Shown in pieces: positions 1-6,136 of a stretch of DNA of 27,841 bases; the stretch's first letter is position 1; each line of letters starts with the position of its first letter. Where the stretch lies: NCBI GenBank assembly GCA_964600245.1, contig CAZRIU010000001.1, positions 6,119 through 33,959 of the forward strand, read 5' to 3'. The notes under the pieces are model-generated. The model worked only from the letters and a program-made list of their open reading frames with translations. It was not told the origin of the DNA and ran no database searches. The position numbers and the translations under genes were made by a program. The stretch comes from an uncultured Dehalococcoidales bacterium. Its GTDB lineage: Bacteria > Chloroflexota > Dehalococcoidia > Dehalococcoidales > BS750m-G39.

Positions 1-585
1 CTTCTTTTCTTTTGTCGCCTTGGTCTCTTTCTTCTTGGTCGTCTTCGCTTTCTTCGCTTTAGTTTCTTTCTCGGCCTTCTTTTCTGCCTTGGGGGCTTTT
101 GGAGCCGCCTTCTTTGCCTTCTTAGGCGGCTTCTCCTCTTCCTTGGCGGTCTCTTCTTCAATAACGCTAACCATTATTTTGGGTGTAATGTCTTTCCCCA
201 GCTTGATGGTTATCTCATAGCTGCCGAGCTGATGAATAGGCTTATCCAGCTCTATTTTTCTCTTGTCGACGACCAGCCCGGTGGCGCTCTCCAGTTCGGC
301 GGCAATATCGGCACTGGTGATTGAGCCGTAGAGCCGTTCTTTGGCGCCAGCGTGCGCCTTGAGGCTGACCTCTTTGCCGTCGAGCTGACCGGCCAGATCG
401 ACCAGTTCTTCGTTGGTACTGGCCTGGGCTTTGCTAGTGGTCACCACCTGGCTCATCGCTTGGGGGCTGGCTAGGGCGGCCAGTTTTCGGGGAATAAGAA
501 AGTTCCGGCCGTAGCCGTCAGCTACCTCTTTTACCTCGCCCGCTTGAGCTACATTGGGTACATCCTGGAGGAAGACGACCTTCAT
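1..585 (-). CDS. rplI: 50S ribosomal protein L9, partial (runs off the left edge), with Lys/Ala/Glu-rich C-terminal extension
   Basis: Translated by hand (not in ORF track, no stop in window). ATG at 585 gives MKVVFLQDVPNVAQAGEVKEVADGYGRNFLIPRKLA, the L9 N-terminal signature. The frame stays open through ...KIMVSVIEEETAKEEEKPPKKAKKAAPK... to position 1. Confidence 0.97.
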   Translation of the reverse strand, partial: MKVVFLQDVPNVAQAGEVKEVADGYGRNFLIPRKLAALASPQAMSQVVTTSKAQASTNEELVDLAGQLDGKEVSLKAHAGAKERLYGSITSADIAAELESATGLVVDKRKIELDKPIHQLGSYEITIKLGKDITPKIMVSVIEEETAKEEEKPPKKAKKAAPKAPKAEKKAEKETKAKKAKTTKKKETKATKEKK

Positions 586-654: not shown

Positions 655-981
655 TTAGTCCAGAACGGTTTCCAGGCTGCGCTTCAATTCTTCCTTGGGT
701 TTATAGCCTACTATTTGTGAGACCGGCTTGCCATCCCTGAAGATAATGAGGTTGGGTATAGCCATTATGCCATACTGGGCGGCGGTTTTGGCGTTCTGGT
801 CAACATCCAGTTTGGCGATGGTTAACTTGCCGGTATACTCTTTAGCCAGCTCTTCCAGCACCGGGGCAGCCATGAGACAGGGTCGGCACCAGGCCGCCCA
901 GAAGTCCACCAGTACCGGTGTCTTTGCCTTTAATACCTTTTGCTCAAAGTCGGCGTCAGTTACTGCTATCGGTTTGCTCAT
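655..981 (-). CDS. trxA: Thioredoxin
   Basis: 108 aa; [14 protein letters not shown] active-site motif; [14 protein letters not shown] cis-Pro region. Confidence 0.96.
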
Positions 982-1969
982 AGTTTCCCTCCCTAATTAT
1001 TCGGCAGATGTCCCGTTCTACTGTCTGTTTGGCCAGACCTATGGCATTGTTTATCGCTCTAGCCTGGCTGCGCCCGTGGGCGACGATGATATTGCCGTTT
1101 ATACCCGCCAGGTAAGCGCCGCCGTATTCTCTATAGTCTACCCTTTTAGCCAGGGAGCCCAAGCCCAGGTCGTGAAGCAGGTTTCGTCCCCGGAAGTGAT
1201 AGGCAGTGGATATGACTCTTCCCACCTGCCGAGTCATGTTTAAGAAAGTATCCCCCATGCCCTCTATCGTCTTAAGCACTATGTTTCCGGTGAAGCCATC
1301 GGTCACGATGACATCGGCGGTTCGGTTCGATATATCCTGCCCTTCTATACTGCCGACAAAGTTTAGCGAGCTCTTCTTGAGTAGATTATAGCTTTCCTGT
1401 GTCAGGCGATTACCCTTGGTCTCTTCTTCGCCGGTGCTGAGCAGGCGAACACGCGGCGCTTTGATATCCAGCAGGTGTTTGACGTAGGTCGAGCCCAGAT
1501 TAGCAAATTGGAGCAGGTGGCTGGGGCGGCATTCCGCGTTGGCACCAGCATCGATGAGGAGGGTGGGGGTGTCGGGGGTGATATCGAGGAAGCTGCCCAA
1601 GGCGGGGCGCTCGACGCCTTCTATCTTGCCCAGCTTGAGCAGGCCTGCACCTAACACCGCCCCGGTGTTGCCCGCCGAGACAAAGGCGGCGGCGACGCCG
1701 TCTTTTACCAGGTTGGTGCCGATTACTATCGAGGAGTTGGGTTTACTCTTCACAGCCCTTATCGGGTGCTCGTTAGGGGCAATGACCTCGGTGGCTTCAA
1801 AGATCTGGAAGTTCAGTTTTTTTATATCGCGCCCGGCCAGCACGTGTAACACGGCTTTATCGCCCACCAGGGCAATATCAACCCCGTATTCCTGGGCGGC
1901 CTTTATGGCTCCCTTCACTATCTCCCGCGGGGCGTTTTCGCCGCCGGCGGCATCAACAGCAATCAGCAT
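956..1969 (-). CDS. plsX: Phosphate acyltransferase PlsX
   Basis: [13 protein letters not shown]-terminus, [48 protein letters not shown] motifs. The 3' end overlaps the trxA start by 26 nt. Confidence 0.96.
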
Positions 1970-1988
1970 ATCTTCCTCACCAGCATTG

Positions 1989-2954
1989 TTAACTATTCGG
2001 GCTTTTCTGCCACAGGTCGCAGCGGCCTCCCCACTGGGCCAGGATCTTTCCCTCTACAGAAAGCTGGGATATCTCGCATAGAGTAGGGCAGGCCTGGCAT
2101 TCGAACGAGGAGGTGCGATAATCTATCTCGCTGACACCAAATCCCTTAAAGCTGCTTTCGTTCTGACCGCTTGTCATCTCTTCATGTACCAGCAGGGCAG
2201 CGCCTATGGCTCCCATCACCTCATGGTGAGGGGGAACGATAACCTCGGGGCCGAGCTCTTCTTGGAGCGCCTTCACTATACCCTGATTGAAGGCAACGCC
2301 ACCCTGAAATATTATCGGGGGTTGAATATCCTTGCCCAGGCCGACATTGTTGAGGTAATTACGCACCAGCGCCTGGCACAAACCGTAAACAATGTCCTCG
2401 GTGCGATGCCCGGTTTGCTGTTTGTGTACCATGTCCGATTCGGCGAAAACGGTGCACCGCCCCGAGATGTGCACTGGCGTCGCGCTCTCCAGCGCCTTTC
2501 GGCTGAACTGCTCGATGCCCATATTGAGACGCATTGCCTGGTGGTCGAGGAAGCTGCCGGTGCCCGCCGCGCAGACCGTGTTCATGCCGAAGTCGGTGAC
2601 TATACCCTCTCGAATAATGATTATCTTGCTGTCCTGCCCTCCGATTTCGATGACGGTCTGGCTCTGGGGGAAGTAGTGCAGGGCGCCTACGGCATGGCTG
2701 GTAATCTCGTTCTTGACTAGGTCGGCGCCGACGATAACCCCAGCCAGGTAGCGGGCACTGCCGGTGGTGGCTACGCCGCAGATATCCCTGCCCAGGGGGA
2801 GTTGCTCTTTGATCTGCTTTAAGCCCTGCTGCGTTGTCTCGATAGGCTTACCCTGGGTTGGTAGGTAGAGGTCGGCGACCAGCTCATCAGCCTCGTCTAT
2901 CACGGCTAACTTGGTGGTTACCGAGCCGACATCAATACCCAGATAGGCTTCCAT
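1989..2954 (-). CDS. Acyl-CoA dehydratase activase (BadF/BadG/BcrA/BcrD ASKHA ATPase, HgdC-like [4Fe-4S]) with extra C-terminal CxxCxxxC...C segment
   Basis: [10 protein letters not shown] and EIGGQDSK phosphate motifs; cluster ligands in [10 protein letters not shown] and [10 protein letters not shown]; FQGGVA; MGAIGAAL; tail [12 protein letters not shown]...WGGRCD. Confidence 0.92.
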
Positions 2955-3012: not shown

Positions 3013-4194
3013 TTAGCTGCCTGCCCGCTCAAACTCTTCTCTAACCTTGGTAACTGTTTCCGGGCGGGCCGTCAGGTCAACCACTGTCATCGCCAGTGCC
3101 TTGGCGGCATCAAGCATCCCTTTGATGCCGGCTTCAGAAGCCGCAACTGTAGCGAACTCTGGAGAATGTATTACTACTTCTTCAGGCGCTACGGCGATGG
3201 TAGGATGTATGCCCGGTACGAGCTGGCTGACGTTGCCCATATCGGTGCTGCCGACTCTACTGGCTCCGTAGAGAGGCATCTTGCGTCCCAGGGGCTTCAT
3301 ATTCTGCCTGAATAGCTCGGCCAGCGTCAGGTTGTTAATCAGTGGCGCATAGACAATATTTCCCCACTGGTATTCCAGGCGGGCGCCGGTGGCGGCGGCG
3401 GCGCCGACAAAGCAATTAAGAACTTTCTCTTTTAGCTCGTCCAGGTAGGCGTTATCCTCGGCGCGCACCAGAAAGCTGCCCGCGCTGTGGGCGGGGACGA
3501 CATTAGGCGCCTCTCCGCCGTCGGTAATAATGCCGTGGATGCGCGCTTTATCCATAATATGCTGCCTGAGGGCGTTAATGGCGGCGAAGGAGAGGAGCAT
3601 TGCCTCCAGGGCGTTAATGCCGGTTTCGGGCCTGGTGGCGGCGTGGGCTGCTTTGCCGAAGAACTCGACCTCCAGGGTGATACAGGACAGAGCCTGGGTG
3701 GTGGCGGTATCATGCGCTCCCGGGTGCACCATCATGGCTATATCTATCTTATCAAAGGCACCCCGCTCCGCCATGACCACCTTGCCCCCGTAGAACTCCT
3801 CGGCGGGCGTGCCGATAACCAGGACACTGCCCCCACACTTGTCTATGGCCGGCTTGGCAGCCACGGCGGCACCGACGGCAGCGCCGGCTATCAGATTATG
3901 CCCGCAGGCGTGCCCCAATTGGGGCAGTGCGTCGTACTCGGCCAGGATGGCGATGGCTGGTTTGCCCTTTCCGTAGCTTCCTTGGAAGGCGGTGGGCAGT
4001 TCGCAGATGCCCCGCTCTATAGCGAAGCCGTTTTTCTCAAGATATTGGGTAAGCAGGGCGGATGCCTTGACCTCTTTAAAGCCCAGCTCGGGGTTGGCGT
4101 GGATTTTAAGGCTGATATCACGGAGCTGGCGGCGGTGAGCCTCTACTTCTTTGATAACCGAATCTTTTAGCGCTTTAATATCCAAGCTTCTCAC
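3013..4194 (-). CDS. M20 family amidohydrolase/metallopeptidase (PM20D2/ACY1L2/AbgB-like)
   Basis: IHANPELGFKE, AEYDALP, HACGHN, GTPAEE, MVHP, GKAAHA, GSTDMGNVS motifs. The start may instead be TTG at 4185. Confidence 0.92.
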   Translation of the reverse strand: MRSLDIKALKDSVIKEVEAHRRQLRDISLKIHANPELGFKEVKASALLTQYLEKNGFAIERGICELPTAFQGSYGKGKPAIAILAEYDALPQLGHACGHNLIAGAAVGAAVAAKPAIDKCGGSVLVIGTPAEEFYGGKVVMAERGAFDKIDIAMMVHPGAHDTATTQALSCITLEVEFFGKAAHAATRPETGINALEAMLLSFAAINALRQHIMDKARIHGIITDGGEAPNVVPAHSAGSFLVRAEDNAYLDELKEKVLNCFVGAAAATGARLEYQWGNIVYAPLINNLTLAELFRQNMKPLGRKMPLYGASRVGSTDMGNVSQLVPGIHPTIAVAPEEVVIHSPEFATVAASEAGIKGMLDAAKALAMTVVDLTARPETVTKVREEFERAGS

Positions 4195-4321
4195 CTTGGG
4201 GCTGTTTTTTATTATAGCTTAGTGCCATTATAATTTCTAGGCGGGGCTATATGGATTTAGCCCACTTTTTGGCTCCGCTAGGGCATTATCTCAAATACGC
4301 TGAAAAAACGGGCACCAGCTA

Positions 4322-5862: not shown

Positions 5863-6136
5863 TTCACCTTCGGCTAAGCATATACCGCAGCGTACCTGCG
5901 TCGCTTGTGGCCAGATAAGACCCAAGCGGAAGCTAATCAGGCTGGTCCGGATTGCGGATGGCGGGGTGGAGGTTGATAATAGCGGTAGGAAGGCGGGGCG
6001 CGGTGCCTATTTATGCCCGGCAGGGGATTGCTGGGTGGTGGGGCTTAAAGAAGGACGGCTGGAGCATGCCCTGCGTACCGCTATTACTCCCGATAATCGG
6101 GAACAGCTTATTGAATACGGGCAGGGACTGGGATAA
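5840..6136 (+). CDS. ylxR: YlxR/DUF448 family RNA-binding protein
   Basis: [11 protein letters not shown]...LIRLVR...GRGAYLC signature. Likely start is ATG 5840 inside the nusA 3' end (the track's 5702 start is too far upstream). Canonical position between nusA and infB. Confidence 0.92.

Follow-up and report, generated by a model that had tools for sequence, protein, structure and literature searches.

Which enzyme is served by an activase that stands alone beside plsX, with no gene for a dehydratase around it? The question is raised by P0001, a protein of 321 residues encoded in a 27,841-nucleotide stretch of DNA (the whole of which is called the window here; positions 6119–33959 of contig C1, CAZRIU010000001.1) from an uncultured Dehalococcoidales bacterium (assembly GCA_964600245.1, here G000; 1.10 Mb in 137 contigs, 85.8% complete). 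A sequence-only reading of the window had described a complete HgdC-type activase 19 nt upstream of plsX on the same strand and no dehydratase subunit nearby. Both observations hold, as the two open reading frames score above their family cut-offs and a profile search of the window gave no match to PF06050 or PF09989 (DUF2229). The same reading had proposed that the activase is one part of a split lipid-ester reductase, related to the plasmalogen synthase PlsA and the glycerol ester reductase Ger and supplied by PlsX. Judged from its sequence P0001 is a real, functional activase related to the activase domains of PlsA and Ger. A split lipid-ester reductase fits its relatives but not this genome, where the client of P0001 is on balance more probably H (P0007), a protein of the HGD-D family encoded on another contig.

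P0001 belongs to the BcrAD_BadFG family (PF01869, 165.1 bits against a cut-off of 31.5) and to the acyl-CoA dehydratase activases (TIGR00241, 202.7 bits against 125.4). It contains a single PF01869 domain, and the profile search found neither PF09989 nor an HGD-D part in it. The AlphaFold2 (AF2) model of P0001, a monomer like all the structure models used here, has a mean predicted local distance difference test score (pLDDT) of 90.8. In Foldseek it matches the solved activases MbdQ, HgdC, HadI and DCCP-R at TMt values of 0.83–0.94 (MbdQ 9gai_D, 0.94; HgdC 1hux_A, 0.90; 4eht, 0.87–0.89; 7yyl_E, 0.83), the ATPase core alone being covered. Two cysteines, C128 (in NTVCAAGTG) and C167 (in GRCTVF), are invariant in an alignment of 41 stand-alone and fused sequences, and we take them to be the equivalents of the cluster-bridging cysteines in the HgdC structure 1HUX. 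The ratio of nonsynonymous to synonymous substitution rates (dN/dS) against a congener is 0.08, and orthologues with 81–97% identity are abundant in metagenome-assembled genomes of Dehalococcoidales and Dehalococcoidia.

The core is followed by a C-terminal tail with four cysteines (FEC286-QA-C289-PTL-C293-x18-R311-C312), in which the extra CxxCxxxC-x18-RC segment named in the sequence-only reading is readily recognized. C286, C289, C293 and C312 are invariant in the same alignment, together with F269, G271 and G309. The tail is predicted as a short helix and three β-strands (pLDDT 85–90), and no solved activase among the Foldseek matches covers it. A similar segment was said in that reading to come after the second activase domain in DUF2229-containing proteins, and this proved correct on two counts. 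Residues 4–318 of P0001 align with residues 304–620 of P0006, a fused protein of the same genome, at 38% identity and with the Cys motif included. Furthermore, in an exhaustive HMMER search of 1.84 billion representatives the stretch that best matches P0001 is in almost every case a second activase domain with its linker, in proteins of about 1400 residues (up to 49% identity). In the fused proteins the linker equivalent to the tail leads into DUF2229. An invariant Cys4 tail that is common to PlsA/Ger and present in no solved activase is a structural puzzle.

In many Dehalococcoidia and some Bacillota the orthologues of P0001 belong to a three-gene module, D1-D2-activase, whose activases share 67–83% identity with P0001 (83% at locus L014). 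D1 and D2 show homology to P0006 (about 25% identity) over stretches that follow one another, and the module is therefore a split relative of the fused enzymes with a single activase. At L014 and L015 the row reads M20, B12-binding radical SAM, D1 (DUF2229, 335 aa), D2 (364 aa), activase, plsX, trx, trxB, L9 and dnaB. Of the 30 best loci, 11 have D1-D2 immediately ahead of the activase and one more (L037) has it downstream. The insertion point in these relatives, occupied in some of them by the radical SAM gene as well, is between the M20 gene and the activase, which in G000 are separated by an intact 58-nt spacer. The radical SAM gene directly upstream of the module (L014:4620-5906, L015:4620-5906) has its best partial matches in HpnJ, BchE and lipid/ladderane-type radical SAM proteins, all below cut-off. 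Outside Dehalococcoidia, tailed stand-alone activases occur in D1-D2-activase triads of spore-forming Bacillota, away from plsX. Two such triads (L152:620-6338, L153:1-6984) directly follow spoVA genes and a GerA-family gene, which hints at a sporulation-linked role in those organisms.

A tree of ATPase cores, built without the characterised PlsA, Ger, HgdC, HadI and DCCP-R, was rooted on two activases of the benzoyl-CoA reductase (BCR) type from the same genome, and its branching order is uncertain because both root sequences are long-branched. Set apart from the BCR-type activases is one group made up of the stand-alones of Dehalococcoidia, four further clusters of stand-alone activases and both activase domains of the fused proteins. 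All first domains form one clade (SH-aLRT 99) and all second domains another (100), and these two clades are sisters (88). P0001 is nested among the split-module activases and belongs with the PlsA/Ger-type domains; the stand-alones fall outside both fused-domain clades. The state of D1 changes five times on this tree, and D1/D2 therefore appear to have been lost repeatedly (at least about four to five times), the activase being retained each time.

G000 is one of the genomes that lack the split partners. Candidates for D1 and D2 were sought by a PF09989 scan and by tblastn with D1 and D2 of L014, and were rejected since all matches lie inside P0006. They were likewise not found in G241, of the same genus (97% complete), and D1 is also missing from 27 other genomes with a tailed activase, many of them 95–100% complete. 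In pairwise comparisons between D1-less genomes dN/dS is 0.08 for the activase overall and 0.05–0.13 for the tail, low values which argue that neither is decaying, and conservation of the tail is independent of the presence of D1 in the genome.

A closer look at the other members of these families in G000 points to the client. The genome encodes five activase domains, two in a cluster on contig C58, two inside P0006 and the fifth in P0001. P0006 (C1:37636-41745, 1369 aa), located 28.6 kb from P0001 and 3.7 kb past the end of the window, consists of two PF01869 domains, PF09989 (C1:39154-39795, the DUF2229 match nearest to the window) and a long C-terminal half. It is the sole DUF2229 protein of the genome and looks self-sufficient, because both of its activase domains keep the cluster cysteines. 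By analogy with the known fused enzymes, the organism may make ether lipids by this route. A GT4 glycosyltransferase gene lies directly upstream of P0006 (the pair at G000:C1:37636-42919; L010:3737-9020). The C58 cluster (G000:C58:1-7053; L012) comprises a family III CoA-transferase, two HGD-D subunits, two activases and an FAD-linked oxidase, and is a self-contained 2-hydroxyacyl-CoA dehydratase or BCR-like system. The search for partners thus returned a complete fused protein and an orphan HGD-D protein, but not the D1/D2 pair. This orphan, H (338 aa, G000:C25:8665-9681), is the sole HGD-D protein without an activase of its own, and since each of the remaining four activase domains already has a partner (two in C58, two in P0006), it is the likeliest client of P0001.

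In this scenario P0001 is a homodimeric 'archerase' activase whose two subunits would hold a [4Fe-4S] cluster between them through C128 and C167, by analogy with HgdC, HadI and DCCP-R. ATP hydrolysis would drive the transfer of a low-potential electron to the Fe-S cluster of a partner from the HGD-D/DUF2229 superfamily. This lineage has lost D1 and D2 and has kept the activase under purifying selection, its Cys4 tail intact, and the partner that P0001 would now most likely reduce is H.

H is as conserved as the activase (mean column identity 76% across families) and contains five invariant cysteines (C51, C52, C72, C78 and C282). Its AF2 model (pLDDT 84) is most similar to the double-cubane cluster protein DCCP (6eno, TMq 0.76), followed by HadC and the BCR subunits MbdN and BzdO. 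This likeness to activase-dependent enzymes and the invariant cysteines count for the pairing. H was considered as a bona fide double-cubane protein and rejected as such, as the 7-Cys motif is absent and the score with NF040772 is 54.8 bits against a cut-off of 350 bits. In G000 the gene lies between enolase/TcmP and GAPDH, and the locus has the order eno-(TcmP)-H-gap-(CetZ-like) in 80 species. The conserved row can be followed as enolase-(TcmP-like)-HGD-D-GAPDH-CetZ-like tubulin-dnaX (G000:C25:6389-11377, L011; L065, L066, L070-L149), and the CetZ-type tubulin gene (PF00091 and PF21011) is present in over half of the 80 Dehalococcoidia species loci. The TcmP gene (TIGR04474, 115 bits; G000:C25:9678-10526, L011) is placed between eno and H and overlaps the start of H by 4 nt. 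It occurs in the genus of the window, in G014 and in some other species, and is absent from most families. Its product, the TcmP-like P0008, was rejected as a second subunit of H, despite this overlap, in view of its absence from the eno-H-gap loci of most families.

Near-complete relatives lead to the same reading. Four genomes that are 99–100% complete (G055, G133, G079 and G254) carry one PF01869 gene each, the plsX-adjacent orthologue, and one PF06050 gene each, H. PF09989 is absent from G055, G133 and G254, and G079 was not searched for it. In G014 (100% complete) there is one extra activase, beside its own HGD-D pair, and the same activase and H are left over. Such an activase is required by all HGD-D superfamily members characterised so far (PMC7317905). 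With the two genes as sole members of their families in four genomes, H is most simply read as the client of the activase beside plsX, and the same bookkeeping by elimination applies to G000. The distribution of the genes in 301 Dehalococcoidia genomes goes in the same direction. A tailed stand-alone orthologue is present in 62 of the 301, and a tail-less one (275–290 aa) in 12 Dehalococcoidales genomes, including complete single-contig genomes of 1.4–2.1 Mb. D1, sometimes fused to D2, occurs in 36/301 and H in 62/301. The 74 activase-bearing genomes divide into those with H only (39), D1 and H (17), D1 only (17) and neither (1; G263, 94% complete), where independence would predict 9.7 genomes with neither. 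This pattern is spread over about 30 families, with D1-only and H-only genomes in about ten families each, and the counts are read as a pattern, not as a statistical test, because the genomes are kin.

Several observations weigh against the assignment to H. Shared ancestry confounds the phyletic pattern, and both genes have the look of core genes passed on vertically within the same subclade. Six genomes carry H without a stand-alone activase. The pairing has no support from gene neighbourhood, because in the 80 species H is never found within 6 kb of any activase, with the exception of G215, whose D1D2-activase module is about 3 kb from H, with unrelated genes between. In G000 the two genes are on different contigs and in G055 they are 44 kb apart. 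The absence of D1/D2 from G000 is limited by an assembly that is 86% complete. Finally, the tail is kept without D1/D2, yet Dehalococcoides-like lineages, which likewise have H and no D1, have lost it; its role does not map cleanly onto H. With these points set against the elimination, we infer that P0001 serves H in this genome with somewhat more confidence than doubt.

A broader proposal is made tentatively, and we hold it to be a little less probable than its opposite. The plsX-linked activase and the eno/gap-linked H could constitute a class-wide, unlinked and previously unrecognised two-component radical or low-potential reductase of Dehalococcoidia, and its substrate might be an acyl-phosphate or a lipid carbonyl, given that the activase and the only plsX are, probably, consistently transcribed together. 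Were this so, such a substrate would mean an ester-reducing chemistry distinct from that of PlsA/Ger. The pairing of the activase and H, the only members of their families in the minimal Dehalococcoides-like genomes, is testable. Since the superfamily carries out difficult reductions and dehydrations, an assay of a core member shared by organohalide-respiring Dehalococcoidales and relatives from sediment would be worthwhile. Literature searches on Dehalococcoides hydroxyglutaryl-CoA dehydratase, on an activase together with benzoyl-CoA reductase in Dehalococcoidia, and on DUF2229 together with an activase returned nothing from the library searched.

The surroundings of the activase (Table 1) bear on the first alternative, reduction of lipid esters to ethers or vinyl ethers coupled to PlsX, with P0001 as an accessory of P0006 or with H acting on a lipid or acyl-phosphate. 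The short spacer to plsX, with no terminator-like site on the minus strand between the two genes, suggests that they are likely co-transcribed.

Table 1. Features of the activase-plsX row, in window coordinates.
Feature	Position	Strand	Details
rplI	1-585	-	Open reading frame in the window
Thioredoxin gene (trx)	655..981	-	PF00085, 108.9 bits; overlaps the plsX 3' end by 26 nt
plsX (phosphate acyltransferase), 337 aa	956..1969	-	PF02504; TIGR00182, 328 bits against a cut-off of 243
Spacer between activase and plsX, 19 nt	1970..1988	-	Shine-Dalgarno-like GGTGAGGAAG ahead of the plsX ATG
C-terminal tail of P0001, aa 263-321 and stop	1989..2168	-	Cys4 motif C286/C289/C293/C312 encoded at 2019-2099
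P0001, stand-alone activase, 321 aa	1989..2954	-	ASKHA ATPase core (aa 1-262) and Cys4 tail
M20D-type amidohydrolase gene	3013..4194	-	TIGR01891, 226.8 bits; conserved upstream neighbour of the activase
Candidate promoter, TAGAAA-17-TATAAT	4211..4239	-	Upstream of the M20 gene; 10/12 consensus matches, from a consensus scan only

The candidate promoter, the best promoter-like site of the scan, could serve the whole M20-activase-plsX-trx row. plsX is the sole PF02504 match in the assembly. In 21 of the 30 best loci plsX comes next after the activase, the two genes are also adjacent in G014, G055, G293, G150 and G128, and the adjacency extends to Dehalococcoides/Dehalogenimonas-like genomes. At L016 the row is as in the window (M20, activase, plsX, trx, L9); relatives carry trxB after trx. 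The supposed coupling to the acyl-phosphate supply of PlsX has a synteny conserved within the class on its side. The conserved block (M20-activase-plsX-trx-L9-dnaB) is, however, kept as a unit and includes unrelated housekeeping genes, and adjacency to plsX was rejected outside Dehalococcoidia, being absent in three Bacillota-type contexts, where the triads stand elsewhere. It may be a gene order specific to the class and no more, and it argues only weakly for a lipid role or for coupling to acyl-phosphate. In five genomes D1D2 is found elsewhere and the activase has stayed beside plsX, which favours a lipid role, and in six or more the whole D1-D2-activase module is away from plsX.

Other points in favour of lipid-ester reduction are the Cys4 tail and ATPase core common to PlsA/Ger-type proteins, the D1-D2-activase-plsX rows of relatives, selection on the tail in D1-less genomes, nearly all of which have a fused protein, and the lipid genes of contig C1 (plsX, an ino1/GT4 cluster and P0006 beside GT4). 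Noted besides, as a side observation, were six separate PlsY (PF02660) paralogues on contigs C6, C56, C8, C111, C55 and C24, an unusually large set of acyl-phosphate-dependent acyltransferases for a genome of 1.1 Mb with a single plsX. Against lipid-ester reduction, P0006 owns two activase domains with their cluster cysteines. G014 keeps the tailed activase without a fused protein or D1, the activase-plsX pair is kept in Dehalococcoides-like genomes without any DUF2229 protein, and H sits between glycolytic genes. What stands of the proposed split reductase is the kinship with PlsA/Ger and the modules of relatives; for G000 itself, where D1/D2 are missing (as in G241) and the fused P0006 is encoded separately, lipid-ester reduction is an unlikely explanation, albeit the best of the alternatives. 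The distinction has a practical side, because screens for ether-lipid genes use the fused architecture of two activase domains plus DUF2229, and an activase by plsX could mislead as a split lipid-ester reductase. That would be wrong here, with the split partners gone and a complete fused enzyme elsewhere.

An activase without any HGD-D-type client, either an evolutionary leftover or a reductant of some unrelated metalloprotein, would agree with a partner that is not adjacent and with a tail that has no solved counterpart. Strong purifying selection, survival of the activase through repeated losses of D1/D2 and the single genome among the 74 that misses both H and D1 make this more doubtful still. 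That D1/D2 lie in the unassembled part of the genome (about 14%), P0001 being part of a normal split PlsA-like module at two loci, agrees with an assembly in 137 contigs and with the five relatives in which D1D2 is away from the activase, but is very improbable given that G241 and the 27 other tailed-activase genomes also lack D1.

Service to H, the reading preferred here, can finally be set beside the known systems. With PlsA/PlsR (C. perfringens CPE1194-1195; single-gene forms in Enterococcus, Lactococcus and Bifidobacterium) and Ger (T. maritima Tmari_0479) P0001 shares the activase type and the Cys4 linker. Homologues of Ger and PlsA are defined by two PF01869 domains and PF09989 in one polypeptide (PMC13159169), with 1415–1640 aa in the single-gene forms (PMC12838417), whereas P0001 has a single activase domain and that architecture is found instead in P0006. 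The split modules of Dehalococcoidia and Bacillota have an orthologous activase whose tail and M20...plsX setting match those of P0001, but D1, D2 and the B12-radical SAM gene of L014/L015 are absent in G000. HgdC, HadI and MbdQ show the same fold (TMt 0.88–0.94), the ATPase motifs and the two cluster cysteines; P0001 differs from them in its extra tail of about 60 residues and in having no adjacent dehydratase or reductase genes. P0001 and H also resemble DCCP/DCCP-R (C. hydrogenoformans CHY_0487/0488; E. coli YjiM/YjiL), in which an activase homodimer serves a single-subunit acceptor of the HGD-D family (PMC7317905, PMC9351452), and DCCP is the best structural and NCBIfam match of H. The DCCP motif is C-x19-C-x18-19-C-x29-C-x166-170-C-x32-34-C-x32-C (PMC7317905), of which H fits only C52-x19-C72. 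DCCP-R lacks a Cys4 tail, unlike P0001, and the DCCP and DCCP-R genes are adjacent, whereas those of P0001 and H are unlinked.

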